A DNA stretch of 64,000 nt from Sphingomonas sp. (GCF_035944535.1 NZ_DASZBC010000002.1:34638-98637), one strand, 5' to 3'; counted from the first letter of the stretch, positions 4,226 through 64,000 are shown. Notes: a model not told the origin generated them from the sequence alone. Made by a program: numbers and translations.

Positions 4226-4390
4226 CGTCATCCCCCGCCCTAGTTTAGTGATCCCCGCGAAAGCGGGGACCCAGTCTCTTCTTCTCTTAGTGCCCTTTGT
4301 GCTCTTCGTGAGAACCCATTCTTGTTCTCACAAAGGCCACGAAGATCACGAAGAAGGAAGCCGGGTTCCCGCTTTCGCGGGAAAGACGAA
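4226..4390. repeat. composite nested palindromic element (ccccgcgaaagcggggaccc // gggttcccgctttcgcggg arms around an inner cacgaag/cttcgtg hairpin)
   Basis: Outer inverted repeat at 4253-4272 and 4362-4381. Inner imperfect hairpin at ~4293-4350. Translating it produces the spurious 'PAKAGTQ' N-terminal extension of ORF 4248. Confidence 0.75.
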
Positions 4391-4409
4391 GGGGTTAGGA
4401 GCCCGGAGC

Positions 4410-6311
4410 ATGAAGCTCATCTTCGCGTCACTCCTCCTCGCCTCCTCCACCGCCGCCATCGCCCAGCTTAGCGCCCCGCAGCCGGTCGCTTATGTCGATC
4501 CAATCCCCGCGCCGCGCGACATCCCCTATCCCGGCACGATGACGGTGAAGGTCGACGCGACCGACATCGAGCGCGGCATCATCGAAGTGCGGCAGACCAT
4601 CCCCGTGCGCGAAAGCGGGCGGATGACCTTGCTGGTGCCCGCCTATCTGCCCGGCAAGCATGCGTCGCGGCTGGAGCTCGACAAGCTCGGCGGCCTCGTC
4701 ATCAAGGCCGGCGGCAAGACGCTCGTCTGGAAGCGCGACCCGGTCGACGTCCACGCCTTCCATATCGATGTGCCGGACGGCGCCCGAGCACTGGATCTTG
4801 AGTTTCAGTTCCTCTCAGCAGTGGCAAGCGATCAAGGCCGGATCGTCGTCACGCGCGAGATGATGAATCTGCAGTTCGAGCAGCTCTCCTTCTACCCGGC
4901 AGGCTATTTCACCCGGCAGATCCCGGTGACGGCGAGCGTCACCTATCCCAAGGGCTGGCAGGCGGCGACGGCGCTGCGGCCGACCGCCACCGTCGGCGAT
5001 ACGATCACCTACGGCACCGTCAGCTACGAAGTGCTGCAGGACTCGCCTATCTTCGCGGGCAAATATTTCCGCCGCGACGATCTCGGCCAGGGCGTGATCC
5101 TCAACACCGTCGCCGATCACCCCAGGGAGCTGGCGGTCACGCCCGAAGTGCTCGCCTTGCACCGCAACCTCGTCGACCAGGCGATCAAGCTGTTCGGGTC
5201 GCGCCATTATGACCATTACGACTTTCTGCACGCGATTACCGACCGGATGGGCGGGATCGGGCTGGAGCATCACCGGTCGAGCGAGAACCAGAACGACCCC
5301 GGCTATTTCACCGATTGGGCGGCGTCGCTGCCCGATCACAATCTGCTGCCGCACGAGTTCGTGCATAGCTGGAACGGCAAGTTCCGCCTGGGCGCTGACA
5401 GCTGGACGCCCGATTTCCGCACGCCCAAGCGCAACTCGCTGCTCTGGGTCTATGAAGGCCAGACGCAGTTCTGGGGCCATGTGCTTGAAGCCCGGTCGGG
5501 CATGTCGTCCAAGGCGGACGTGCTCGACAAGCTGGCCAGCATCGCCGCTTCGCTCGACAACCGTCCGGCGCGGAGCTGGCGGAGCCTCGACGACACCACC
5601 AACGACCCGATCATCTCGGCACGCCGCCCCAAGGCTTGGCTCAGCTGGCAGCGAAGCGAGGATTATTACAATGAAGGCCTGCTGATCTGGGTCGAGGCCG
5701 ACGCGATCATCCGCGAAGGCACCGGTGGCGCCAGAGGCATGGACGATTTCGCCCGCGCCTTTTTCGGCATCAGGGACGGCGACTGGGGCCAGGTCACCTA
5801 CACATTCGACGATGTGGTCGCGACGCTGAACAGCGTCTACGCTTATGACTGGCGCGCTTTCCTGACGCAGCGGCTGACCGAAAAGGCGCCGCGCGCCCCG
5901 CTGCTCGGCTTCGAGAAGAGCGGCTACAAGCTCGTCTACACCGACACCCCGACCAACTGGATGACGCGCACGCAGAAGCACGGCAAATATCTCGACCTGA
6001 TCTATTCGCTCGGGATCAATGTCGCGAAGGGCAAGGTCAGCGCGATCCAGTGGGACGGCCCGGCCTTCAAGGCGGGCATGGTGGTCGGCCAGGAGATCAT
6101 CGCGGTCAACGGCGTGCCCTACACGGAAGAGGTGCTGAAGGCGGCGGTGACGGCAGCCAAGGGCGGAAAGGCCCCGATCCGCCTCACGATCAAGACGGAG
6201 TCGCAGGTGCGCGACGTCGCTCTCGACTGGACCGGCGGCCTGCGCTACCCGCGCTTTCAGAAAACAGGCACCGGAGAGGGTGCGCTCGACAGGCTGCTCA
6301 CCGCCCGGTGA
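4410..6311 (+). CDS. M61 family metallopeptidase (glycyl aminopeptidase-like) with C-terminal PDZ domain, secreted
   Basis: HExxH motif HEFVHSWNGK. PDZ-like AGMVVGQEIIAVNG. I chose ATG 4410 (MKLIFASLLLASSTAAIAQ signal peptide) rather than GTG 4248, which lies inside the repeat. Confidence 0.85.
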   Translation: MKLIFASLLLASSTAAIAQLSAPQPVAYVDPIPAPRDIPYPGTMTVKVDATDIERGIIEVRQTIPVRESGRMTLLVPAYLPGKHASRLELDKLGGLVIKAGGKTLVWKRDPVDVHAFHIDVPDGARALDLEFQFLSAVASDQGRIVVTREMMNLQFEQLSFYPAGYFTRQIPVTASVTYPKGWQAATALRPTATVGDTITYGTVSYEVLQDSPIFAGKYFRRDDLGQGVILNTVADHPRELAVTPEVLALHRNLVDQAIKLFGSRHYDHYDFLHAITDRMGGIGLEHHRSSENQNDPGYFTDWAASLPDHNLLPHEFVHSWNGKFRLGADSWTPDFRTPKRNSLLWVYEGQTQFWGHVLEARSGMSSKADVLDKLASIAASLDNRPARSWRSLDDTTNDPIISARRPKAWLSWQRSEDYYNEGLLIWVEADAIIREGTGGARGMDDFARAFFGIRDGDWGQVTYTFDDVVATLNSVYAYDWRAFLTQRLTEKAPRAPLLGFEKSGYKLVYTDTPTNWMTRTQKHGKYLDLIYSLGINVAKGKVSAIQWDGPAFKAGMVVGQEIIAVNGVPYTEEVLKAAVTAAKGGKAPIRLTIKTESQVRDVALDWTGGLRYPRFQKTGTGEGALDRLLTAR

Positions 6312-28868: not shown

Positions 28869-28953
28869 TACCTTAAGCCTATGGCGGAGATGGGTTGAAC
28901 CTTGGCTGACGCAAGGGGTGGGAACGCCGCCGCAGCCGTCGCGTTTGCCGCTC

Positions 28954-54070: not shown

Positions 54071-55882
54071 ATGGCAACCGAACTTTCCAAGATCCGCAAT
54101 TTCTCCATCATCGCGCATATCGATCATGGCAAGTCGACGCTCGCCGACCGGCTGATCCAGCGCACCGGCGGCCTCACCGACCGCGAAATGTCCTCCCAGG
54201 TCCTCGACAATATGGACATCGAGAAGGAGCGCGGCATCACCATCAAAGCGCAGACCGTGCGGCTGGAATGGAATGGCTACACCCTCAATCTGATGGACAC
54301 GCCGGGCCATGTCGACTTCGCCTATGAAGTCAGCCGCAGCCTCGCCGCCTGCGAAGGCGCGCTGCTCGTGGTCGACGCGGCGCAGGGTGTCGAGGCGCAG
54401 ACGCTCGCCAATGTCTATCAGTCGATCGAGCACGACCATGAAATCGTGCCTGTCATCAACAAGATCGACCTGCCCGCCGCCGAACCCGAAAAGGTGCGCG
54501 CCGAGATCGAGGAAGTGATCGGCCTCGACGCCTCCGAAGCGGTGCTCGCCTCCGCCAAATCCGGCATCGGCATCGACGAAGTGCTCGACGCGATCGTCAG
54601 GAAGATCCCGCCCCCCAAGGGCGATGCCGACGCGCCCTTGAAGGCGATGCTCGTCGACAGCTGGTACGATCCCTATCTCGGCGTCGTCATCCTGATCCGC
54701 GTCATCGACGGCGTCGTCAGGAAGGGCCAGCAGATCAAGTTCATGCAGGCCGGCACCACCCACCTGATCGACCGCGCCGGCGTGTTCCGCCCCAAGATCG
54801 AGAACCTGCCCGAGCTCGGCCCCGGCGAGGTCGGCTTCATCACTGCCCAGATCAAGGACGTGGCGCAGGCGCGCGTCGGCGACACGCTGACCGACGCCCG
54901 CCGCCCCACGGCGCAAGCGCTGCCAGGCTTTAAGGAAGTGCAGCCGGTCGTCTTCTGCGGCCTCTTCCCCACCGACGCCAACGACTTCGAGAAGCTCAGG
55001 GAAAGCATCTCCAAGCTCCGCCTCAACGATGCGAGCTTCAGCTTCGAGATGGAGACCAGCGCCGCATTGGGCTTCGGCTTCCGCTGCGGCTTCCTCGGCC
55101 TCCTGCACCTGGAGATCATCCAGGAGCGGCTGACCCGCGAATATGATCTCGACCTGATCACCACCGCGCCCAGCGTCGTCTATCGACTGCAGCTGACCCG
55201 CGCCGCCGGTGAGGCCGAGGCGCAGACGATCGAGCAACACAACCCCGCCGACATGCCCGATCCCAATCGGATCGACATGATCGAGGAGCCTTGGATCGAG
55301 GCGACCATCTATGTGCCCGACGAATATCTAGGCGCCATCCTGAAGCTCTGCCAGGATCGCCGCGGCATCCAGAAGAACCTGACCTATGTCGGCGGCCGCG
55401 CCCAGCTCACCTACGAGCTGCCGCTCAATGAAGTTGTGTTCGACTTCTACGACCGGCTGAAAAGCATCAGCCGCGGCTACGCCAGCTTCGACTATCACCA
55501 GATCGGCTATCGCGAGGGCGACCTCGTCAAGATGAGCATCCTGGTCAACAACGAGCCGGTCGACGCATTGAGCATGATCGTCCATCGCGGCACGGCCGAG
55601 ACGCGCGGCCGCGGCATGTGCGAACGCCTGAAGGACCTGATCCCCCGCCACCTCTTCAAGATCCCGATCCAGGCCGCGATCGGCGGCAAGGTGATCGCGA
55701 GAGAGACCATCGCCGCGCTGCGCAAGGACGTGACGGCGAAATGCTATGGCGGCGATATCTCGCGGAAACGCAAGCTGCTCGACAAGCAGAAAGAGGGCAA
55801 GAAGAAGATGCGGGAGTACGGCAGCGTCTCCATCCCTCAAGAGGCGTTCATCGCCGCGCTCCGCATGGGCGACGAAGGCTAG
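54071..55882 (+). CDS. lepA: translation elongation factor 4
   Basis: 603 aa. GTPase motifs [21 protein letters not shown]. LepA C-terminal domain. Confidence 0.98.
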
Positions 55883-56139
55883 CTGCTGGACAGGCAGGAA
55901 ATGGGCAGGAACCCTCGATACCGGGGATCGAGGAAGCCCTAGTTCTGGCACGAAGACGATGCGGAACGCGCAGCGACCGTTAGCGCGGTGCGCTAGCGCA
56001 GGTGGATGGCTTCTGAGGTTGAGAAGGGGGCTTGCGTAGCAATCGCCGATTTAGACGAGACACCGCGACATCACTGGCCGGCGCGCGAAACTCGGAAAAC
56101 TAGGGGAGGCGATAGACTAATGCAGCCACAACCTGAGTT

Positions 56140-57075
56140 CTATAGCCTAGCTGCACGATCGCATTTTGCCAAGAACGCAGCAAAGCCTTCGGGTAGCGGT
56201 GAGCGAGACGCGAGCGAGCCGAGACTCATCTCATCGTGCTTCAGCTTGGCATCCTGACCGATCGGTGGAGGGAAGAGGCCATGGCGAGCATTCCTATATT
56301 CATCACAGAGTCGGTCGAGCCATCCTCGGAAAAACTTGTACGCGAACTTACCTCGATAGCGCTCGCCAGGATCAAGCTGCTTAAACTCTTCTTCAAGCTG
56401 CTGAGTAGCCTCTCCCAAAATCGGGAGAGCTATCGCCTCCTCCGCCGGAGGATTACACGGCTGCACATGTCCTAATTCGACCGCAGCTAACTTTGCCAAG
56501 GAGGTAGGAATGTAGTTGTCGATCTCGACACGGACGCGCCGAGCGAAGAATATCCGCCGATTCAACTCCGAAGCTATTTGTAGGAAGTCCGCGTAGTCTG
56601 CTTCGAACAGCATGCAAACTTTTTCGCGCATAGCCCTATCCCCACTGCCCGGAAAGGCCACTTTGATCGTTTCGTCAAGAACCTGCCTGTCTACTAAGTA
56701 GTTCTCGATTGAATAGCGATCCAACATGAACACGAAATCGATGCTCTCAAATCCTTCTAATTCGTCAAAATCTCTATCAACTAGAAAGGCGACGCCTTCA
56801 TTTGCGTTTGAAAGATCTCTGGCTAGAACATTCCTGAGCTTCTTAACTTCACGCTTGCCTGAACAAACGAAAAACTCGTACGCTAGATCTGGAGCGACGC
56901 GCTGAATCCAGTAGGAGTAGGCGATTTTGTCGTCGTCGCCCTCGACTGCGAAGATCAGGCCGCTGGGATAGCGGGATCGAAAGTTGAGGAAGCTGATCTT
57001 GGCCACAGCCTGTCGATCACGTGCTGCAATCTGGCTAGCAACATAAGAGTCTTGACCGCTGCCTTCCTCAATCAT
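56140..57075 (-). CDS. DUF4435 / TOPRIM-like (OLD-family nuclease-like) protein, AriB/AbiLii-like
   Basis: Motifs FAVEGDDDKIAY, FLVDRDFDE, DRYSIENYL. ATG 57075 lies 8 nt inside the upstream ATPase gene; ATG 57090 is an alternative. Confidence 0.8.
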   Translation of the reverse strand: MIEEGSGQDSYVASQIAARDRQAVAKISFLNFRSRYPSGLIFAVEGDDDKIAYSYWIQRVAPDLAYEFFVCSGKREVKKLRNVLARDLSNANEGVAFLVDRDFDELEGFESIDFVFMLDRYSIENYLVDRQVLDETIKVAFPGSGDRAMREKVCMLFEADYADFLQIASELNRRIFFARRVRVEIDNYIPTSLAKLAAVELGHVQPCNPPAEEAIALPILGEATQQLEEEFKQLDPGERYRGKFAYKFFRGWLDRLCDEYRNARHGLFPPPIGQDAKLKHDEMSLGSLASRSPLPEGFAAFLAKCDRAARL

Positions 57076-58648
57076 CGGACACGTCACCATTCCCGGCTGA
57101 TGTCGGGAGCGCCAACTGCGGTTGGTTCGCGTCAGAGACTGATAAGTCGAGAGTCCGCGCAAAAGGTTCGAGAGAATTGTCAAACACAAAAGGCGAATGA
57201 GTGATTGCCACAACCTGCTCACAGTTTGGCGATAGAAGAACGTCAATCAATATACCGCGCTGCCAATCAATAGAGAGAGACAGCTCTGGCTCATCGATCA
57301 AAACAATCTTTTTCTTTGGATACAGATACATTCGAGCAAAAAGAGATATCATTTGCTTCTCGCCGGACGAGAGAGAGTCGAGCGAAATAGGCGTCTTCGC
57401 CGGTAGGCTCTCAACATTAACGCTCAGGTCTGTTGGGTTTAACTTAAGCTCCTTTGCGTCAATCTCTTGTAGATGCGTCCGGTTCGCTTCTGTACTAGGA
57501 AGCGTACTGGGTTCCGAAGATGACAAGTAACGATTGCAGCTCCTTATGAAATCCCCAACAGGCTGCTCGATCTCCTTTGTTATGTTAATTATTCCATTCA
57601 GCTTGTTTAGGAAGTAACGTAGGAACTTAGCCGATTCCGGGGGCACGCCTTCGCTACTATAGATTTTTGCAAAATCCGGAGCGCTAATCCTGGAATAATA
57701 AGGCCCCATCATTCTTGTTCCGGACTCCAGACGCGAGAAGAAGAGCTTTAGGTCGTCAGGCTGGGGTATCTCTGCGTCCTCTGAAACCTCGTATCCTCGG
57801 ATAAGTTCATCAATTATGTTCTCGCTAATCTCACGATATTCCCTATTTGATCGCGCAATAATCCTATCGTGAAGTTGAGATAGCCTTTCGGAGATATCGC
57901 CCAAGCCGAACTGTATTTCTGCAGTATGCAGTCCACTGGCGGATATATTAAGCTTCGGCTTAGATCGTCCTAGGCGACGACGTTCCTCTCTATTGTCGGT
58001 GAGTGCAAGTTCGACGCGCCGGTAAGTCGGCAGATAAACTATCTCGAAGTCTGAAAGAGCCTCAGCTAATGTGGTCCTTAATCGATCAAGAGGAGGGCTT
58101 TTTCTGAAAAGCGAGTTGTAAGCATCCGCGCATGCTTTTCTAACTGCCCTGCTGTCATGCCCGAACGCTCTATACAACGCATTCGTTATGCTGTGCTGAT
58201 CATGATCGTTAGCCCAGTTGTCTAGATAGGGCTCATAGTCTGAGAATAGAAACGCTAGGAGCTTATCGGTTCCAACTTGAGACCTACTTGCGAGACGCCC
58301 AATCTCGCCTTCAGACGAGCCTTGGAGAAAGGTAAGGAGATCATCGTGCGTTAGAACCAGTTCTTCCGGAACGCCCCTCAGTCGGCAATATATCTCTGCA
58401 AAGTCGAGGTCTCGAAGCCTATAGAGCTGCAGCTTCAAGAAGGCGTCTAATGCGCTGAGGAGGGTGGTCTTGCCAGTGCCATTCCTCGCTATCAGGATTG
58501 TAGCCGCGTGTTTCGAAGACAAGGATATATCGCGAAAGCCGTAGAGTCCCCTGATCCCGAACCGTTCTATCAAGGCGGGACGCGCTCCAGCCAACGCGGC
58601 GCGCTCCTGTGCGTCCGGAGTCGCAAGCACCTCTGTAACTTCGGACAT
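57068..58648 (-). CDS. ABC/SMC-type AAA ATPase, AriA/AbiLi-like
   Basis: 526 aa. Walker A ARNGTGKTT, YLPTYRR, signature LSSGEKQ, Walker B KKIVLIDEPELSLS, H-loop AITHSP. AGGAGGG RBS upstream of ATG 58648. Confidence 0.85.
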   Translation of the reverse strand: MSEVTEVLATPDAQERAALAGARPALIERFGIRGLYGFRDISLSSKHAATILIARNGTGKTTLLSALDAFLKLQLYRLRDLDFAEIYCRLRGVPEELVLTHDDLLTFLQGSSEGEIGRLASRSQVGTDKLLAFLFSDYEPYLDNWANDHDQHSITNALYRAFGHDSRAVRKACADAYNSLFRKSPPLDRLRTTLAEALSDFEIVYLPTYRRVELALTDNREERRRLGRSKPKLNISASGLHTAEIQFGLGDISERLSQLHDRIIARSNREYREISENIIDELIRGYEVSEDAEIPQPDDLKLFFSRLESGTRMMGPYYSRISAPDFAKIYSSEGVPPESAKFLRYFLNKLNGIINITKEIEQPVGDFIRSCNRYLSSSEPSTLPSTEANRTHLQEIDAKELKLNPTDLSVNVESLPAKTPISLDSLSSGEKQMISLFARMYLYPKKKIVLIDEPELSLSIDWQRGILIDVLLSPNCEQVVAITHSPFVFDNSLEPFARTLDLSVSDANQPQLALPTSAGNGDVSDD

Positions 58649-58854
58649 CGAGCCCCCTCCTGAAGCAGAAACCTATTGAGTGATGACGTTTTAGCAAGGG
58701 TGGACATCAGGCGGTTCGCGGCGCAGACGGGGAGAGGCTTTGGAATGAGCCTACTTACCCCATCACCTTCGGCATCTTCATCCATCGCTCGGACTCGATC
58801 TACGACGACAGCCCGGCTGAGCGGTACCAGTTTTCGCCGCAGTATCTCGGGCGC

Positions 58855-59655
58855 GTGCAGGCCTGTGTTGGTGACTGGATCATCTATTATGAGCCGGTGA
58901 AGGTGCCGGGCACGCGCGGTTATTTCGCTGTCGCGAAGGTGCAGCAGGTCATTCTCGATCCGGGCACGCCCGGCATGTATCTCGCGATTATCGAAGCCGG
59001 CAGCTATCTCGACATCGCCAATCCTGTGCCGTTCAACAGCCCCGATGGGCTGGTCGAGCGCGGGCTTTTGAACGAGGCGGGCGCGATCTCCGGCCGCGCG
59101 CAGTCGGCCGTACGGCCGATCTCGCCGGGCGACTTCTACCGGATCGTGACGCTGGGGCTGGCCGAGCATGACGATCTGCTGCCGCGCATCGGTGAAGCGG
59201 CGCCGGGCTCGGCCGTGCGCGAGGAGCCTGCGCCTTTTCTGTATGAGCAGGAGCGGATCACGGCGCTGACTTCGCGGATCGTCCGCGACCGCGTGTTCCG
59301 CCGCATTGTCGTCAAAGCCTATGATGCGCGCTGCGCGATCACCGGCTTGAAGCTGATAAACGGCGGTGGGCGGGCCGAGGTGGAAGCGGCGCATATCCGT
59401 CCGGTGGGTGCGGACGGGCCGGATACGGTGCAGAACGGGCTTGCGCTGTCCGGCACGGTGCACTGGATGTTCGATCGCGGGCTGATCAGCCTTTCGGATG
59501 AGCTCGACATCCTGGTGTCGCGGCAGGTGAATGATCCGGACAGCGTGTGGAGCCTGGTCAACAAGGCGCGGAAGGCGCTGGCGCCGGCGCGCGCGATGGA
59601 TCGGCCGCACCCGCATTTTCTCGGCTGGCATCGGGAGCATTGCTTCAAGCACTGA
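58855..59655 (+). CDS. HNH endonuclease with N-terminal putative DNA-recognition domain (candidate type IV restriction-like enzyme); 5' end apparently frameshifted
   Basis: HNH core CAITGL..EAAHIRP..NGLALSGTVHWMFDRGLISL. The first canonical in-frame start is GTG 58855, but the protein-like frame continues upstream to 58687. ATG 58745 is in another frame (see finding). Confidence 0.75.
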   Translation: MQACVGDWIIYYEPVKVPGTRGYFAVAKVQQVILDPGTPGMYLAIIEAGSYLDIANPVPFNSPDGLVERGLLNEAGAISGRAQSAVRPISPGDFYRIVTLGLAEHDDLLPRIGEAAPGSAVREEPAPFLYEQERITALTSRIVRDRVFRRIVVKAYDARCAITGLKLINGGGRAEVEAAHIRPVGADGPDTVQNGLALSGTVHWMFDRGLISLSDELDILVSRQVNDPDSVWSLVNKARKALAPARAMDRPHPHFLGWHREHCFKH

Positions 59656-59670
59656 GGCCACCAACTCCCC

Positions 59671-59782
59671 CGTTATCGTGAACTTGTTTCAGGACAAGGC
59701 GTCCGCTCGCTTCCAAGCTGGGGAGCGCAACTTCAAACAACGCGCTGCTCAACCCTTGTCCCGAAACGAGTTCGGGATGACG
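59671..59782. repeat. palindromic REP/MITE-like element, family B
   Basis: cgttatcgtgaacttgtttcagga ... gtcccgaaacgagttcgggatgacga. Confidence 0.8.
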
Positions 59783-59816
59783 ATGGTGCGGTGCACCGCG
59801 CGGAGAACGGAACACC

Positions 59817-60350
59817 ATGGCCCAGCTCGTCTTCGGAATGAACGTCTCCCTCGACGGCTATGTCGATCATGACCGGTTCGCGCCGTCGCCGGGGCTGTTC
59901 CGGCACTTCGTTGCCGAGGCCGAGGGGCAGGTGGGGAGCCTGTATGGCCGCCGCGTCTATGCGCTGATGCGCTATTGGGAGGAGGACCAGCCGGGCTGGG
60001 GTGCGGACGAGCGGGCGTTCGCGGCGGCGTGGCGGCGTCAGTCGAAATGGGTCGTGTCGCGGACGCTGGGCGGGGCCGGGCCGAAAGCGCGGCTGCTGGG
60101 CGTGGACGATCTCGCGGCGGAGGTCCGCCGGCTGAAGGAGAGCCATGCGGGCGAGATCGAGGTCGCCGGGCCGGCGCTGGCGGGCAGCCTCTCCGCCCTG
60201 GGACTGATCGACGAATACCGCCTCTATCTTCACCCGGTCGTGCTGGGCGGTGGCACGCCCTATTTCGCCGGCGCCCGCCCGCCGCTTCTCCTCCTCGCGC
60301 ACGATCTGATCGACGGCGACGTGATCCGGCTGCGCTACGTCCCTGCCTGA
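59817..60350 (+). CDS. dihydrofolate reductase family protein (RibD C-terminal domain-like)
   Basis: 177 aa. MAQLVFGMNVSLDGY.. N-terminus and ..GGGTPYF.. are typical of this family. Confidence 0.8.
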   Translation: MAQLVFGMNVSLDGYVDHDRFAPSPGLFRHFVAEAEGQVGSLYGRRVYALMRYWEEDQPGWGADERAFAAAWRRQSKWVVSRTLGGAGPKARLLGVDDLAAEVRRLKESHAGEIEVAGPALAGSLSALGLIDEYRLYLHPVVLGGGTPYFAGARPPLLLLAHDLIDGDVIRLRYVPA

Positions 60351-60465
60351 CGATCCTTTCGATTTCGCTGTCCTACACGCCGCCCGCCTTGCTAGCCCTT
60401 GCGCTCAAGGCTCTGTGACTCGTCCGGATCGCGCCCTCGCCGCTCACGAGATTCACATATCGCAC

Positions 60466-60510
60466 GTGCAGAAGGTGCGGAATGTGCGGATCGTGCGGAA
60501 TGTGCGGGAA
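60466..60510. repeat. five tandem 9-bp units (GTGCrGAAk)
   Basis: gtgcagaag gtgcggaat gtgcggatc gtgcggaat gtgcgggaa. Intergenic, ~100 bp upstream of ATG 60607. Confidence 0.8.
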
Positions 60511-60606
60511 GGGTGGCGCGGAGTGAATCCGCGCCGTGCGGCCGGGCGGGCGCCGGCTCTGCGCGCAAGCTGGCTTGCGCTCGGCGGCGACGCTACGCTC
60601 CCGCCC

Positions 60607-60951
60607 ATGTTCGACGTGAGCGAAGTGCGGGCGTTGCTGATCGCGGCGGCGCGGGAGGGGCGGGCCGTCTCCTATGTGGAAGGCCTGGCGGCGTTCGGCC
60701 ACCGCTTCACCCGGCCGAAGATGCGGGCCTTCTGCAAGGCGCTCGACGCCGTCGACCAGGCCGGCGCGGCGGCGGGGGAGCCGGAACTGGCCGTGCTGGT
60801 GGTGCGGGAATCGGACGGGCTGCCGGGCCAGGGCTGGTGGGTCGGATCGTCGCTGCGCTACGGGCATGAGGGCGACTGGACCGGGCCCGAGGCGAAGGCG
60901 CTGGTGCGGGAGCTGCAGGGCCGGGCGTTCGACTATTGGAGAGATGAATAG
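60607..60951 (+). CDS. hypothetical protein (114 aa)
   Basis: ATG 60607 (MFDVSEVRALLIAAAREG..) with coding-like GC3. The 60415 extension reads through the 9-bp repeats. No domain recognised. Confidence 0.6.
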   Translation: MFDVSEVRALLIAAAREGRAVSYVEGLAAFGHRFTRPKMRAFCKALDAVDQAGAAAGEPELAVLVVRESDGLPGQGWWVGSSLRYGHEGDWTGPEAKALVRELQGRAFDYWRDE

Positions 60952-61802
60952 TGTTCGAAGGCAGAAAAGTGTGGATCACGGGCGCGTCGTCCGGCATCGG
61001 CGCGGCGCTGGCGGAGGCGTTCGCGGCAGAGGGCGCGCGGCTGGTGCTGTCCGGGCGCAGGCGCGAGGCGCTGGCGGAGGTCGGGGCGCGGGTGCAGCCG
61101 GATGCGGTGCTGCTGCCGTTCGAGGCAACCGACTGGGCGGCGCTGCCGGAAGCGGTCGCGACGGCGGGCGAGGTGGACGTGCTCGTCAACAATGCCGGCA
61201 TCAGCCAGCGGAGTCTTGCCGTCGACACCAGGCCCGAAGTCTACAAGGCGCTGATCGAGACCGACCTGCTTGCCCCCATCTGGCTGACCCAGCTGGTGCT
61301 GCCCGCCATGGTCGAGCGGGGGCGCGGCGGGCACATCGTCGGGATCAGCTCGGTCGCGGGGCGCGTCGGAACAGTGCTCCGGACCGGCTATTGCGCGGCC
61401 AAGCACGGGCTGATCGGCTATCTCGACGCGCTGCGCGCCGAGGTGGAGCTGGCCTATGGCATCAAGGTCACTACGGTGCTGCCGGGTTCGGTCAGGACGC
61501 AGGTTGCGGCCAATGCGCTGGTGGCGGACGGGTCGGCCCGAGGCGAGTCGGACGTCAACATCGATGCGGGGATGGAGCCGGCGGAATGCGCGCGGCGGAT
61601 CCTGGCCGGCATGAAGGCAGGCACGCGCGAGATCATCGTCGCGGAGGGCGGCGAGGCGCGCGGCGCGGCGTTGCGCTTTGCCGATCCGGAACGGCTGTTC
61701 GGCCTGCTCGCCCAGGAAGGTGCGCGGCTGGCGGAGGAGCGGGCGAAGGGGGCGCGGCCGGAGCCGGCGCCGGTCAGGCGGACTTTGCCTGAGCGCCAGT
61801 GA
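60951..61802 (+). CDS. SDR family oxidoreductase
   Basis: 283 aa, GTG start. TGASSGIG motif and YCAAKHG catalytic motif. Confidence 0.88.
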   Translation: MFEGRKVWITGASSGIGAALAEAFAAEGARLVLSGRRREALAEVGARVQPDAVLLPFEATDWAALPEAVATAGEVDVLVNNAGISQRSLAVDTRPEVYKALIETDLLAPIWLTQLVLPAMVERGRGGHIVGISSVAGRVGTVLRTGYCAAKHGLIGYLDALRAEVELAYGIKVTTVLPGSVRTQVAANALVADGSARGESDVNIDAGMEPAECARRILAGMKAGTREIIVAEGGEARGAALRFADPERLFGLLAQEGARLAEERAKGARPEPAPVRRTLPERQ

Positions 61803-61989
61803 CGGGGATCGGATCGGCGCCGGCCGGCAGCAGCGCCACCTTGCGCGCGCCGGACCAGAGTTCGCAATCGACTGAGGGCGCGACTTTCCGGCCAGCGGCG
61901 ATCGCGTCGTCATCATTCTCGGCAAGCAGCTCGTGCCGGCGCGTGATCCGCCCGCTGCGATCCAGGCAGTAAAGCTTATACTCGGCCAT
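61774..61989 (-). CDS. small hypothetical protein, paralog 1 of a three-member family (71 aa)
   Basis: MAEYKLYCLDRSGRITRRHELLAENDDDAIAAGRKVAPSVDCELWSGARKV.. Shares Y+LY..(4-5)G+I..RH..(5-6)DD..A..(n)E(L/I)W with 62963-63148 and 63669-63854. Confidence 0.65.
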   Translation of the reverse strand: MAEYKLYCLDRSGRITRRHELLAENDDDAIAAGRKVAPSVDCELWSGARKVALLPAGADPIPVTGAQAKSA

Positions 61990-62118
61990 GGACCACCCCC
62001 GACCAGCTTCATAGCCGAGTCGGCGACGTGCGTCTGTCCTCCAGCCGACATAGTGTGACGCTCGCCACTGCATTCGTCGCGCGATAGGCTAGCCCCAAGG
62101 GCAACAGGGAGGACATGA

Positions 62119-62568
62119 GTGAAGAGACTGCTGGCTTTGGGCCTTATCGCCGCGGCGCCCGCCGCTGCCACTGCCGCGCCGCCAATGCCGCGCTGGACCG
62201 CGGCGGGCATGGACCATGCGGGCCGGACGATCGAAATCGACCGCAACTCATTGAACTGGCGTTCGGTGCAGCGGGCCTGGTGGCGTGTTTCCTATCCGGA
62301 GCCCCGGCGCGACGGCACGGTCGAGGAACGGCATCTGGAGCTGGTCGATTGCCGCGACGGCACGTCGGCGGTGATCCGGATCGTGTCGCTGGACGGCACC
62401 GGCCGGGTGCTGAACGAGCAGGTCGATGGCGAGGAACTGGCGCTGCAGCGGCTGAGCCCGCCGACGCCCGACACGGCCGGGGAGACGGTAACGCGGGAAG
62501 CCTGCCGCCTCCGCCCGCCGCCCCCGCCTCCTCCGCCGCGTAAGCGCATGATGCAGAAGCAAAAATAA
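62119..62568 (+). CDS. secreted hypothetical protein with poly-Pro/basic C-terminal tail
   Basis: GTG 62119, 8 nt after GGGAGG. Signal peptide MKRLLALGLIAAAPAAATA. C-terminus PPPPPPPPRKRMMQKQK. Confidence 0.65.
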   Translation: MKRLLALGLIAAAPAAATAAPPMPRWTAAGMDHAGRTIEIDRNSLNWRSVQRAWWRVSYPEPRRDGTVEERHLELVDCRDGTSAVIRIVSLDGTGRVLNEQVDGEELALQRLSPPTPDTAGETVTREACRLRPPPPPPPPRKRMMQKQK

Positions 62569-62772
62569 TTTGTCCCTTTTTGGAACAGGAGGGCGTGCTC
62601 GGGCATTCTACCCTCCGAGAGCTTGAAGAACCCCCCTTCCCCAAGCTCCGATACCGCCCCGCTCAGGCCCTCACCCCCCCGGTGCCTGGCGGGGCATTTT
62701 CGTTTCCGGACGGCGCAATTATAACTTTGTCTATGTCGGGAACCCGACATAGCCTCTGGTGGTTCAACCGCC

Positions 62773-62958
62773 GTGATCAGTGATAGCGTCTATCTTCGCC
62801 AACAGGCCGAACGCTGCCGCCGCCTCGCCGCCGACTGTTCGGACGCCCGCACCGCCCATTCGCTGCGCCTTATGGCTGAGGATTACACCTCCCGCGCGGC
62901 CGCCGCTGCGGCGCGAGAGCCGGTCGAGTTCATGCTGGTCGAGACGCGTCAGGGTTGA
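62773..62958 (+). CDS. small hypothetical protein (61 aa)
   Basis: (M)ISDSVYLRQQAERCRRLAADCSDARTAHSLRLMAEDYTSRA.., predicted helical, GTG start. From memory, it resembles small proteins that are multicopy in alphaproteobacteria. Confidence 0.5.
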   Translation: MISDSVYLRQQAERCRRLAADCSDARTAHSLRLMAEDYTSRAAAAAAREPVEFMLVETRQG

Positions 62959-62962
62959 TCGT

Positions 62963-63148
62963 TCAGATCGTCGAGACGTGGCGGGCCGGGGCGCTGCTCA
63001 GGTCCCAGAGTTCGCGCGCGCCCTCGCGGCGAAGCGCGGCGGCGCGGCGCAGCGCCTCGCGGTCATCGCGCGCCTCGAAGTCGCGGTGGCGTATGATCTT
63101 GCCATGTTTGACCGTGTAGAGGCGGTAAAGCCTGTGCGCGTGATCCAA
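62963..63148 (-). CDS. small hypothetical protein, paralog 2 (61 aa, TTG start)
   Basis: (M)DHAHRLYRLYTVKHGKIIRHRDFEARDDREALRRAAALRREGARELWDLS.. TTG 63148 lies 7 nt after AAGGGG. The longer ATG extension is low-complexity. Confidence 0.55.
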   Translation of the reverse strand: MDHAHRLYRLYTVKHGKIIRHRDFEARDDREALRRAAALRREGARELWDLSSAPARHVSTI

Positions 63149-63254
63149 GTGGAACCCCTTCCGTTCCAATGCCTTTGACGGAAAGAGCCTGAACCCCGGC
63201 TTGCTGGCGCCTGGGCCCGGCGGAGCCGGACGGGCGGATGCGCGTTGCCGAAAA

Positions 63255-63665
63255 ATGGACCGCATCTTTACCCATGTTGCAACGCGCATCGCAACGGCGG
63301 CGGGCCAGCCGCAGACGTTCTTGGTCGCCCTGCTGGTAATTCTGGGCTGGGGGCTGTCAGGCCCCTATTTCGGCTATTCCGACACCTGGCAGCTGGTCGT
63401 GAACACGGCAACGACGGTCGTTACCTTCCTGATGGTCTTCGTCATCCAGAACAGCCAGAACCGGGACGCGGCGGCGATGCAGGCCAAGCTGGACGAGATG
63501 TTGCGCGCGCTGGAGAAAGCGCGCGAGCAGTTCATCGGCATCGAGCATCTGACCGACCGCCAGATCGAGGACCTGCGCGCCGCGCTTGAGCGGGAAGTCG
63601 GCAAGGAACCGGGCAAGCCGGGAACCGCTGACGACACGGTGGAGCGTTTGCTCGAACGTTACTGA
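63255..63665 (+). CDS. low-affinity iron permease family protein (Fet4-like small membrane protein)
   Basis: ATG 63255. MDRIFTHVATRIATAAGQP..FLVALLVILGWGLSGPYFGYSDTWQLVVNTATTVVTFLMVFVIQNSQNRD is typical of that family. Confidence 0.75.
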   Translation: MDRIFTHVATRIATAAGQPQTFLVALLVILGWGLSGPYFGYSDTWQLVVNTATTVVTFLMVFVIQNSQNRDAAAMQAKLDEMLRALEKAREQFIGIEHLTDRQIEDLRAALEREVGKEPGKPGTADDTVERLLERY

Positions 63666-63668
63666 GGC

Positions 63669-63854
63669 TCAGGCGCGCTGACGATTGCCGGTCAGCGATG
63701 CGAGGCGGCGCGGGCCCTGCCATATCTCGGCGCCAAAGCCATCGGGGCAGATGACTGCCTGGGCCAACGCGGCGTCATCGTCCGACGCCTGATAGTCGTG
63801 CCGGTCCTTGATCCGACCATCGGCACGGAGACAGTAGAGCCGGTAATCCTGCAT
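63669..63854 (-). CDS. small hypothetical protein, paralog 3 (61 aa)
   Basis: MQDYRLYCLRADGRIKDRHDYQASDDDAALAQAVICPDGFGAEIWQGPRRL.. Confidence 0.65.
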   Translation of the reverse strand: MQDYRLYCLRADGRIKDRHDYQASDDDAALAQAVICPDGFGAEIWQGPRRLASLTGNRQRA

Positions 63855-64000
63855 CGCATTTTCCCCTGCGAAACAGGTGGTTAAGCGAGTCGCGAACCAA
63901 TCGCCTTCACAAGGATCATGTTGACCGAAAAAAAGAGCGCATGCGGTGACGATCCCAAGCTAAGCCGTTCAAACGAAACATATGTTCAGTATAGCGCGCC

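Follow-up and report, generated by a model that had tools for sequence, protein, structure and literature searches.

The described systems closest to the locus analysed here are of several kinds. The anti-CRISPR AcrIF9 and the T4/RB69 phage antitoxin Dmd are stand-alone, single-domain proteins without catalytic motifs that act by binding a larger protein. Excludon-type gene pairs overlap tail to tail, and those described have long antisense overlaps with demonstrated reciprocal expression. Class II Crp/FNR/FixK promoters carry a TTGAT-N4-ATCAA dyad near position −41.5. Finally, the YhzD-like and DUF6894 proteins are short and of unknown function, and DUF6894 genes occur in multiple copies in Bradyrhizobium and Methylobacterium, as do those of the family described below.

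The window, that is, the whole 64-kb stretch of Sphingomonas sp. DNA analysed, contains three small minus-strand ORFs (A, B and C), each convergent with a plus-strand gene. The features of the cluster are:

60607–60951, plus strand: 114-aa ORF of unknown function immediately 5′ of the SDR gene, whose start it overlaps by 1 base
60951–61802, plus strand: SDR-family oxidoreductase, 283 aa (Pfam adh_short, E 1.4e-43), convergent partner of A
61774–61989, minus strand: paralogue A, 71 aa, ATG start, a JGI gene call, member of a family with a predicted β-β-α-β-β fold
62119–62568, plus strand: 149-aa ORF with a hydrophobic, signal-peptide-like N terminus, divergent from A and syntenic in relatives
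62773–62958, plus strand: H, a 61-aa alanine/arginine-rich ORF call, presumed helical, convergent partner of B
62963–63148, minus strand: paralogue B, 61 aa, TTG start, also 61 aa in the JGI call
63255–63665, plus strand: low-affinity iron permease (PF04120; Pfam Iron_permease, E 6e-47), convergent partner of C; coordinates are those of the 136-aa JGI call, the longest ORF starting at 63201
63669–63854, minus strand: paralogue C, 61 aa, ATG start
63855–63887, minus strand: conserved leader of C, with a TAA-containing −10-like element and a short CCTG...CAGG hairpin running into an AGGGGA Shine–Dalgarno sequence
63906–63919, minus strand: Crp/FNR-type dyad upstream of C, ATGATCCTTGTGAA

The three ORFs are genuine, conserved genes and belong to one paralogous family. 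A and C are 41% identical (BLASTP E 1e-13) and B and C 36% identical (E 4e-6), far above chance. The three share the motif Y-[KR]-L-Y, G-x-I, DD-x-x-A and E-[LI]-W, which agrees with the positions that are invariant across the wider family (Y4, Y7, D26, A29, E43 and W45); in the signature of the domain, the last element is extended to E-[LI]-W-x-G-x-R. An HMM built from the three and run against the six-frame translation of the 64-kb window recovered the same three ORFs only, with the next match at E 0.25. Beyond the window, the profile matched 4,094 cluster representatives at E ≤ 1e-3 and, at the stricter cut-off of E ≤ 1e-10, 82, with family size counted as clusters at 50% identity. Members occur in Sphingomonas, Bradyrhizobium, Methylobacterium, Phenylobacterium and Lichenicola, including on plasmids, and are always labelled 'hypothetical protein' or left unannotated. 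Tandem two-domain fusions are also present (P0063, P0068, P0094 and P0189). The family is thus a real and very large one of stand-alone, soluble alphaproteobacterial proteins of about 60 residues that lack a description in curated libraries: searches of Pfam, NCBIfam, PADLOC and PDB sequences returned no relative or assigned function, and no paper on the family was found in the literature.

Two Pfam families came closest. PF14120 (YhzD-like) gave weak, sub-threshold matches to 6 of 48 family members and to 7 of 140 representatives (best E 2e-4), and PF21834 (DUF6894) gave equally sub-threshold matches to 6 of the 140 (best E 9e-4). Most family members match neither model, and A, B and C have no match to either even at E ≤ 1. 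Membership of both Pfam families was rejected, as the gathering threshold was not reached for PF14120 or for PF21834. No function is known for either, so that membership would in any case explain nothing.

The coding status of the three ORFs is clear. JGI calls all three as genes, and homologues of B and C are entered as proteins at NCBI. The TTG start of B is the one used in both the JGI and the NCBI gene calls (the 61-aa NCBI homologue is HJG53_11110); a Shine–Dalgarno sequence, GGAAGGGG, lies directly upstream of it and GGAAGGGGTTCC is kept before it, while the open frame extends further, to an ATG at 63289. B is the most conserved of the three copies, its C terminus (DLSSAPARHVSTI) being divergent, and orthologues of C are 61–76% identical. 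dN/dS is 0.15–0.34 for A, 0.04–0.09 for B (four lineages) and 0.10–0.35 for C, or 0.04–0.35 over all orthologue pairs with estimable dS, showing that all three encode proteins on which purifying selection acts.

These results bear out most of what a first-pass annotation of this DNA had proposed. It had placed three paralogous ORFs at these positions on the minus strand, and the ORF calls and BLASTP scores agree; the motif it had recognized is real and coincides with the invariant columns of the wider family; and its remarks that such proteins have no assigned function, and are multicopy and often unannotated in alphaproteobacteria, hold in the library and family searches, respectively. It had also suggested several checks. 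Of these, dN/dS confirmed that the ORFs are coding, and structure prediction gave a confident fold (below). The suggested HMM search had a divided outcome, revealing a large family in which the convergent partner is mostly not conserved.

AlphaFold2 predicts with high confidence a domain made of a four-stranded antiparallel sheet and one helix, in the order β-β-α-β-β. In the model of A (pLDDT 91.6), the strands span residues 2–9, 15–23, 42–46 and 49–54 and the helix residues 26–36, with pLDDT below 50 for residues 66–71; the model of C (pLDDT 84) has the same topology. The best PDB fold matches to the A model are AcrIF9 (TM score 0.71–0.74, r.m.s.d. 2.2–2.3 Å) and phage Dmd (TM score 0.63–0.75), with Foldseek probabilities of 0.98–1.0 but non-significant E values (0.08–0.5) and identities of 10–12%. 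The lower-confidence C model gave E > 2 in Foldseek, and a BFVD fold search gave non-significant matches only. AcrIF9 and Dmd resemble A in size (57–76 aa; r.m.s.d. 2.1–2.3 Å) as well as in consisting of one stand-alone domain that lacks catalytic motifs, a likeness that the models suggest reflects a shared small topology and not homology.

Regulatory genes recur near family members. A Crp/Fnr regulator lies within two genes of a family gene in 5 of about 16 independent contexts, which were picked by availability and for which the background rate of Crp genes was assumed. It is usually accompanied by PAS/HWE histidine kinases. The five comprise the window cluster itself, with two Crp genes, an HWE kinase and a response regulator; a fourth family gene of the same sample, near which lie genes for a response regulator, an HWE kinase and a Crp regulator; a Methylobacterium currus plasmid, with a Crp regulator and a PAS protein; a Phenylobacterium zucineum plasmid, with a Crp/Fnr regulator; and a Sphingomonas melonis TY plasmid, with a PAS protein, a kinase and a Crp regulator. 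Identity among the three Crp regulators of the sample is about 48%, and between them and that of S. melonis it is 31–34%.

The region upstream of C points in the same direction. Its dyad matches 8 of the 10 positions of TTGAY-N4-RTCAA, scores of 8 or more arising at about 1e-3 per position, and is centred 59 nt before the C start codon. It aligns with TTGATCCTCATCAA in Sphingomonas sp. ID1715 (10/10), CTAATCTTGGTCAA in L010 (8/10) and TTAACCTTAGTCAA in L013 (9/10); in a fifth lineage, L004, there is a weak match only. The centre of the dyad is 58–60 nt before the C start in every lineage, so that C has the conserved, promoter-proximal site expected of a Crp/FNR regulon member. As in class II Crp/FNR/FixK promoters, the site is a 14-bp dyad, here 21 nt before a TAA-containing −10-like element, and in three lineages the gene divergent from C encodes a Crp/Fnr regulator. 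Unlike those promoters, the site in the window itself agrees at only 8 of the 10 positions, and A and B have no site. More widely, family genes other than C that lie beside Crp genes, A and B included, have no such dyad upstream. The leader columns of C are invariant in the five-lineage alignment, and the roles of the leader elements are putative, assigned from their sequence. In ID1715, which has the best dyad, no Crp gene is adjacent. Membership of the EcfG regulon was considered and rejected: GGAAC-N15-18-CGTT occurs in the window only at 28921 and 50943, with none near 60–64 kb, and about 1.5 matches are expected in the window by chance.

The account that we consider reasonably probable is that A, B and C are paralogues of a large undescribed family and that their gene geometry is mostly incidental, except for A and the SDR gene; a role in signalling is far less certain. 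Our best guess at function is a small protein-binding modulator, or a regulon member, of stress signalling. The proteins could be small protein-binding modules tied to Crp/Fnr and PAS/HWE histidine-kinase signalling, a suggestion made with much less certainty than the family assignment. They may be members of the regulons of such circuits and possibly their modulators, with C transcribed from a class-II-like, Crp/FNR-dependent promoter, and some copies might work together with a small H-type partner protein.

Gene order across C, B and A and the genes around them is kept in related Sphingomonas, and the GC content of the cluster is native (65–72%). At a distance of 2–5 kb are an HNH gene and a PARIS-like AriA/AriB island of low GC content. 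The 114-aa ORF and the SDR gene probably form an operon because the former lies directly upstream with a 1-base overlap. Gene calls of 114–125 aa occupy the same position in L001, L010, L013, L019 and L021, and the 114-aa ORF accompanies the SDR/A-type pair; it has no PADLOC match and no Pfam match on record for the called gene. The 149-aa ORF has a weak Adhesin_E-like match (Pfam E 2e-4, below the curated cut-off). H, which carries the motif YLRQQAERCRRLA...D...SLRLMAEDY..RA, has no Pfam or NCBIfam match. B and H were also considered as a type II toxin–antitoxin pair and rejected, the two being convergent and not co-directional and neither matching Pfam, NCBIfam or PADLOC.

Each small protein might bind and modulate the product of its convergent neighbour, A acting on the SDR oxidoreductase, B on H and C on the iron permease. 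The predicted fold, which is like that of small protein-binding inhibitors, would suit such a role. The A-type/SDR adjacency is kept across divergent Sphingomonadaceae, and H orthologues adjoin B in five lineages; H-like ORFs also adjoin family genes in L015 (E 4e-6), Bradyrhizobium 2S1 and Bradyrhizobium 195, and beside other family members they are twice co-directional, as if in an operon. However, C is found without the permease, an SDR, permease or H-like gene is lacking beside most family members, and one H-like gene, viewed from the H side, has no family gene nearby. On this evidence we regard partner modulation as unlikely.

The geometry itself was the basis of a different proposal. The first-pass annotation had given the distance between the stops of C and the iron permease as 3 nt (63665/63669) and that between B and H as 4 nt (62958/62963), and the overlap of A with the SDR gene as 29 nt (61774–61802); all three figures are correct. 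It took the threefold arrangement to suggest a selected feature. The convergent, terminator-less junctions would then be selected because overlap of the 3′ mRNA ends couples, or makes mutually exclusive, the expression of each pair through antisense pairing or polymerase collision. The tight junctions agree with this, as does the finding that no intrinsic-terminator-like site is present at any of the three. Tail to tail, 29 nt of coding sequence belong to both A and the SDR gene, and therefore their 3′ transcript ends are complementary whenever both are transcribed.

Comparison with other junctions weakens the proposal for two of the three pairs. The nine other convergent junctions in the window, taken from GC3-based background gene calls, have gaps of 63, −7, 70, 4, 27, 134, 61, 1 and 123 nt, so that 3 of 9 are at 4 nt or less. 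In related contigs, 6 of 18 non-family convergent pairs lie just as close; in one of them, a histidine kinase and response regulator pair, the gap is 0 nt. The geometry is thus only weakly above background. The B/H gap is 4, 2, 155, 31 and 91 nt in five lineages. The C/permease gap is 3 nt in the window, 6 nt in L010 and 3 nt in L013, but the permease is absent beside C in two lineages, L003 and L004. In one of the two, Sphingomonas sp. ID1715, B follows C co-directionally; in the other C-type lineage, a convergent YacG gene lies 143 nt away. Among about 14 family contexts outside the cluster, a convergent neighbour lies within 100 nt in only 2, and the neighbours of family members elsewhere are mostly co-directional. 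Hairpins at the junctions are either non-significant or not conserved in orthologues.

By contrast, the A-type gene and the SDR gene overlap convergently in all six lineages seen, by 29 nt in L003, L010, L011 and L013 and by 4 nt in the distant L019 and L021. The overlap takes in the final 9 codons and the stop of A and falls mostly in its low-confidence C-terminal tail. Conserved convergence with overlap, or without room for a terminator, as expected of cis-antisense control, is therefore found for A/SDR in six lineages and not for B/H or C/permease, and of the proposed selected feature only the A/SDR overlap stands. The pair resembles excludon-type pairs in having a tail-to-tail overlap conserved in relatives, but its overlap is tiny, and within the cluster two of three junctions are not conserved. 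We conclude that abutment is mostly a by-product of dense packing in a high-GC genome and not a family trait, with A/SDR excepted; incidental packing does not account for the conserved A/SDR overlap. As a general explanation of the three junctions, antisense coupling is improbable.

The preferred account, an undescribed family with largely incidental geometry, also has a more ambitious form. The proteins could be a new, very large class of small alphaproteobacterial regulators, β-β-α-β-β adaptors in dimeric or pseudo-dimeric form that sometimes act with an H-type partner, bind parts of the Crp/Fnr and PAS-HWE histidine-kinase/response-regulator circuits and adjust stress or low-oxygen signalling, with the conserved A/SDR overlap serving as a cis-antisense switch between the two genes. 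We hold this combination to be doubtful.

The likeness to AcrIF9 and Dmd raises the idea that the proteins are mobile-element or anti-defence cargo, that is, anti-CRISPR-like or antitoxin-like inhibitors and not housekeeping or stress regulators. Besides these top fold matches, many copies are plasmid-borne and have IS elements and islands of small hypothetical genes around them, and the PARIS-like island and HNH gene are close by. However, PADLOC gave no match and the BFVD and PDB fold matches are non-significant, and native GC content, chromosomal synteny across Sphingomonas and strong purifying selection also speak against cargo, which we judge very unlikely. Unlike AcrIF9 and Dmd, the window proteins are chromosomal, multicopy and syntenic, and they sit beside regulators and metabolic genes, not in phage genomes; assignment as a phage inhibitor of the AcrIF9/Dmd type was rejected on this context, on the PADLOC result and on the 10–12% identity. 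Finally, high-GC genomes are rich in spurious ORFs (42 ORFs of all kinds are listed in 4 kb here) and some pipelines omit such small ORFs or call antisense ORFs instead, but the idea that A, B and C are chance non-coding open frames in GC-rich DNA, antisense to other features, is effectively refuted by the conservation pattern, with dN/dS well below 1 at dS up to saturation, thousands of homologues across orders sharing invariant residues, and confident AlphaFold2 folds.

In GC-rich genomes, small ORFs of the 'wrong' strand can thus be genuine, even where several pipelines skip them or call antisense ORFs. The family described here comprises thousands of clusters, occurs in several copies per genome, has a confidently predicted fold and is under strong purifying selection, but Pfam, NCBIfam and the PDB contain no record of it. 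Even without the signalling link, it is well suited to a curated entry as a 'domain of unknown function'. That the geometry is largely ordinary is worth knowing before antisense experiments are undertaken, save for the A/SDR pair. The Crp/Fnr and HWE/PAS neighbourhood provides a concrete entry point to function, as such sensor families feed alphaproteobacterial stress responses. If the link holds, the family would add a small-protein control layer to a well-studied signalling network of plant-associated and soil bacteria.

The small-gene cluster near the end of the window is composed of three paralogous genes, A, B and C, interleaved with genes on the opposite strand:

60607–60951, plus strand: 114-aa ORF, just upstream of SDR
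60951–61802, plus strand: SDR, a dehydrogenase gene
61774–61989, minus strand: A, 71 aa
62773–62958, plus strand: H, a 61-aa ORF
62963–63148, minus strand: B, 61 aa, taking the TTG at 63148 as the start
63255–63665, plus strand: low-affinity iron permease gene
63669–63854, minus strand: C, 61 aa

The first-pass annotation had placed all three ORFs exactly, and its junction distances are correct: the stops of C and the permease gene lie 3 nt apart, those of B and H 4 nt apart, and A overlaps SDR by 29 nt. The TTG start of B is adopted by both the JGI and NCBI gene calls, with a conserved Shine-Dalgarno-like block (GGAAGGGG) immediately upstream. A and C share 41% identity (E 1e-13) and B and C 36% (E 4e-6), and a hidden Markov model of the three, run on the window translated in six frames, matched no other sequence; judged from these sequence matches, their paralogy is not chance. 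Strands alternate strictly within the cluster: the family genes all read on the minus strand, and the genes between them all read on the plus strand, namely the 114-aa ORF, SDR, H, the permease gene and an Adhesin_E-like ORF whose N-terminus resembles a signal peptide. The layout creates three junctions at which genes converge and three promoter regions from which they diverge.

The first-pass annotation read the repeated tail-to-tail arrangement as a selected feature, a reading that mostly does not hold. Elsewhere in the window, where genes were called simply from GC3, we found nine other convergent junctions, with gaps of 63, -7, 70, 4, 27, 134, 61, 1 and 123 nt; one-third of these non-family junctions are thus at 4 nt or less, and the gene tables of related contigs place 6 of 18 non-family convergent pairs within 6 nt. 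Convergent genes that abut are frequent in these genomes, functionally linked pairs included. Beyond the window end, on the same contig, a PAS-HWE histidine kinase gene (L001 3351–4382, plus strand) meets a single-domain response regulator gene (4383–4784, minus strand) tail-to-tail with a 0-nt gap, and the same type of pair overlaps by 4 nt in another locus (L013 7645–7995 and 7992–9032). The B/H gap is 4 nt in the window and 2, 155, 31 and 91 nt in L003, L010, L013 and L027, respectively. The C/permease gap is tight where the pair exists (3, 6 and 3 nt in the window, L010 and L013), but the permease gene is missing from Sphingomonas sp. ID1715, where B comes co-directionally after C, and from the L004 lineage, where the convergent gene is YacG, 143 nt away. 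Only the A/SDR pairing is constant, in six of six lineages. Outside the cluster, a family gene is mostly followed by a co-directional gene (for example P0034, P0040, P0045, Bradyrhizobium 2S1, M. currus and P. zucineum).

None of the three junctions contains a consensus terminator, and Rfam gave no match at E ≤ 1 across 60000–64000. An inverted repeat at the A/SDR junction (z -1.8 and -2.2) is made of palindromic CCGGCGCCGG coding sequence; the hairpin is not significant in four of the five orthologues folded, and z is -1.9 in L019. The B and C junctions have no more structure than shuffled sequences. The only terminator-like hairpins of the region (62677–62698, plus strand; 62587–62571, minus strand) lie with a C-rich tract in a 204-nt intergenic stretch between the Adhesin_E-like ORF and H (62569–62772, plus strand), which has no Rfam match. 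Taken together, A, B and C are very probably real paralogues of a large, uncharacterised small-protein family whose tail-to-tail packing is largely ordinary for this genome.

The A/SDR pair stands apart. In each of the six lineages seen, an A-type gene converges on and overlaps SDR, which is preceded by a 114–125-aa ORF; four lineages have a 29-nt overlap, and two distant ones, with about 60% nucleotide identity and different other neighbours, have a 4-nt overlap. By sequence comparison, A/SDR is a conserved gene pair. Its conservation could stem from antisense regulation, from a protein-level link or merely from old synteny. The proposal that overlapping antisense transcripts couple each family gene to its partner survives for A/SDR only, and the proposal that the small proteins modulate their partners survives best for B/H and A/SDR.

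A tie of A, B and C to mobile elements or anti-defence is unlikely, because the GC content of the cluster is native, its synteny is chromosomal and purifying selection on it is strong. Orthologues of all three genes were recovered from Sphingomonas sp. ID1715 (L003) and two further assemblies (L010 and L013), along with additional C-type and A-type genes from other lineages (L004, L019 and L021). Pairwise Nei-Gojobori dN/dS, a measure that the first-pass annotation had put forward for coding status, is 0.10–0.35 for C, 0.04–0.09 for B and 0.15–0.34 for A (0.04–0.35 overall), at dS from 0.4 up to saturation. B is strikingly conserved, its unusual C-terminus (DLSSAPARHVSTI) included. A, B and C are real genes; non-coding status is excluded.

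A PARIS-like defence pair is located at 56140–58648 (minus strand), where a 526-aa ORF (57068–58648) matches AriA (E 4e-24) and a DUF4435 ORF (gene call at 56140–57075) matches AriB (E 6e-19). It is followed by an HNH_2 endonuclease gene (58855–59655, plus strand; PADLOC HNH, E 1e-18). The pair sits in a 47–55% GC island within a window of 66% GC, and this island, whose distance to the family genes is 2–5 kb, appears to have been acquired horizontally.

When 1.84 billion cluster representatives were searched by profile, 4,094 proteins matched at E ≤ 1e-3, nearly all of 55–90 aa, with a few tandem two-domain fusions or N-terminally extended forms. In a set of 140 diverse representatives, W45 never varies, and conservation is at least 90% at Y4, Y7, D26, A29, E43 and R49. 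Using tblastn, we found members on plasmids of Bradyrhizobium, Methylobacterium, Phenylobacterium, Sphingomonas and Lichenicola, carriers from four orders of Alphaproteobacteria, each labelled ‘hypothetical protein’ or lacking annotation; with A as the query, tblastn of plasmids found nothing at E ≤ 1e-3. Aligning the three subtypes revealed no stretch conserved enough to serve as a search query. A C-type scan of 185,579 genomes returned Sphingomonas sp. ID1715 alone, and a B-type scan of metagenome contigs returned two loci, both already known.

No curated library (Pfam, NCBIfam, PADLOC or PDB sequence search) has the family. Pfam, NCBIfam and PADLOC yielded no family for A, B, C, H or the 114-aa ORF; at E ≤ 1 the sole Pfam/NCBIfam match for A, B or C was RecO_N_2 (E 0.14), which we judge meaningless. 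Sub-threshold matches to YhzD and DUF6894, themselves families of unknown function, are scattered among the members. PaaB, the best PDB sequence-profile match (E 0.07), was rejected as a relative. No description of the family was found in literature on Bradyrhizobium small ORFs, DUF6894, YhzD or Sphingomonas GSR, HWE and Crp. Long antisense ORFs are sometimes called across a family gene (loci L011/L012 1508–2116 and L029 2447–2668, both minus strand), the L011/L012 call being a 202-aa gene that spans B and H; on B. barranii pCC829_1 the PGAP call is on the strand opposite to the family gene, and the gene tables used for the S. melonis TY, Lichenicola and B. japonicum plasmids hold no gene at the family locus. 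The family is therefore under-annotated. One 82-aa member, P0035, is named ‘anaerobic ribonucleoside-triphosphate reductase’ by JGI, almost certainly a mis-transfer, since its sequence is a plain family domain.

In a structure prediction of the kind that the first-pass annotation had suggested, AlphaFold2 gives C (pLDDT 84) and A (pLDDT 91.6, pTM 0.80) a common fold, with strands at residues 2–9 and 15–23, a helix from residue 26 and strands at 42–46 and 49–54. The final six residues of A have pLDDT below 50; because the 29-nt overlap corresponds to A residues 63–71, most of it falls in this low-confidence tail. The A model superposes on the anti-CRISPR AcrIF9 (TM 0.71–0.74) and the phage antitoxin Dmd (TM 0.63–0.75), small proteins that act by binding a larger protein, with Foldseek E values of 0.08–0.5 and about 11% identity; we take this likeness of a predicted model as a common small topology, not homology. 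The C model has no fold match in the PDB (E > 0.7) and no significant one in BFVD. Tandem fusions of two family domains occur in nature (P0063, P0068, P0094, P0189, P0129 and P0089), and in one protein, of 332 aa, the two domains come after a hydrophobic N-terminal region. The tandem fusions hint that the domain works as a dimer.

Crp/Fnr regulators and PAS/HWE histidine kinases repeatedly adjoin family genes. L001, identical to the window over 55320–64000, extends the cluster past base 64000 with genes for two Crp/Fnr regulators, a PEP-CTERM protein, a response regulator and a PAS-HWE kinase. A fourth family gene, P0034 (68 aa; L015 3001–3207, JGI 3300036520 contig Ga0401353_00113), comes from the same sample, though not necessarily the same genome; its neighbours encode an HWE kinase, a Crp/Fnr regulator and a response regulator. 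The M. currus plasmid copy is near a Crp/Fnr gene and a PAS protein, the P. zucineum copy immediately follows a Crp/Fnr gene, and an unannotated S. melonis TY copy is flanked by a Crp/Fnr gene and, on its opposite side, by a PAS protein and kinase. Crp/Fnr neighbours thus occur in 5 of about 16 independent contexts sampled, against a chance of roughly 1% that one of the four nearest genes is a Crp gene, a figure based on an assumed, not measured, density of about 10 Crp genes in 4,000 genes. The three Crp proteins of the window's sample share about 48% identity with each other and 31–34% with the S. melonis Crp. In S. melonis Fr1, a Crp-type ‘cAMP-binding protein’ is among the EcfG-dependent genes listed (PMC6599016).

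Upstream of C orthologues, a 14-bp FNR-type dyad is conserved (63906–63919 in the window, ATGATCCTTGTGAA; TTGATCCTCATCAA in ID1715). Its centre is always 58–60 nt before the C start codon, and a conserved TAA-containing element follows the dyad at 21 nt; this spacing matches that of a class II Crp/FNR promoter. Neither A and B nor the other Crp-adjacent family genes are preceded by such a dyad scoring at least 8/10 at a consistent position, and the cluster has no EcfG-type (general-stress) promoter motif nearby. At both C (63855–63887, minus strand; CCTG-loop-CAGGGGA) and B (63149–63165, minus strand; GGAAGGGGTTCC), a short conserved hairpin leads into the Shine-Dalgarno sequence; these hairpins could be translational control elements, or merely reflect promoter and Shine-Dalgarno conservation. 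B and the permease gene diverge from a 106-nt region (63149–63254) that contains a block, CAGCAAGCCG-N-GGTTCAG, conserved across four lineages and presumably a shared promoter or operator, which matches none of the motifs tested.

H-like sequences, recognised by the motif A-x-RCRRLA...D...L..LAE.Y..RA, occur in ORFs adjoining family genes in other contexts: an uncalled co-directional ORF 48 nt after P0034 (L015 3255–3431, E 4e-6), the N-terminal part of the gene next to the family gene in Bradyrhizobium 2S1, and an ORF 310 nt upstream of the family gene in Bradyrhizobium 195. No family gene lies within 3 kb of the gene for P0210, a distant H-like protein.

From the recurrent gene neighbours, the dyad, the fused and tandem members and a fold like that of binding proteins, we draw a tentative, on balance doubtful, proposal: family proteins may be small modules that bind other proteins and belong to Crp/Fnr and HWE-kinase signalling circuits, either as members of the regulon or as modulators, and H-type proteins may sometimes partner them. 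Every step past ‘binds something’ is one that we infer. Such a signalling link would be testable and adds some interest to the family of A, B and C, as does the size of an unannotated family that is unnamed but widespread.
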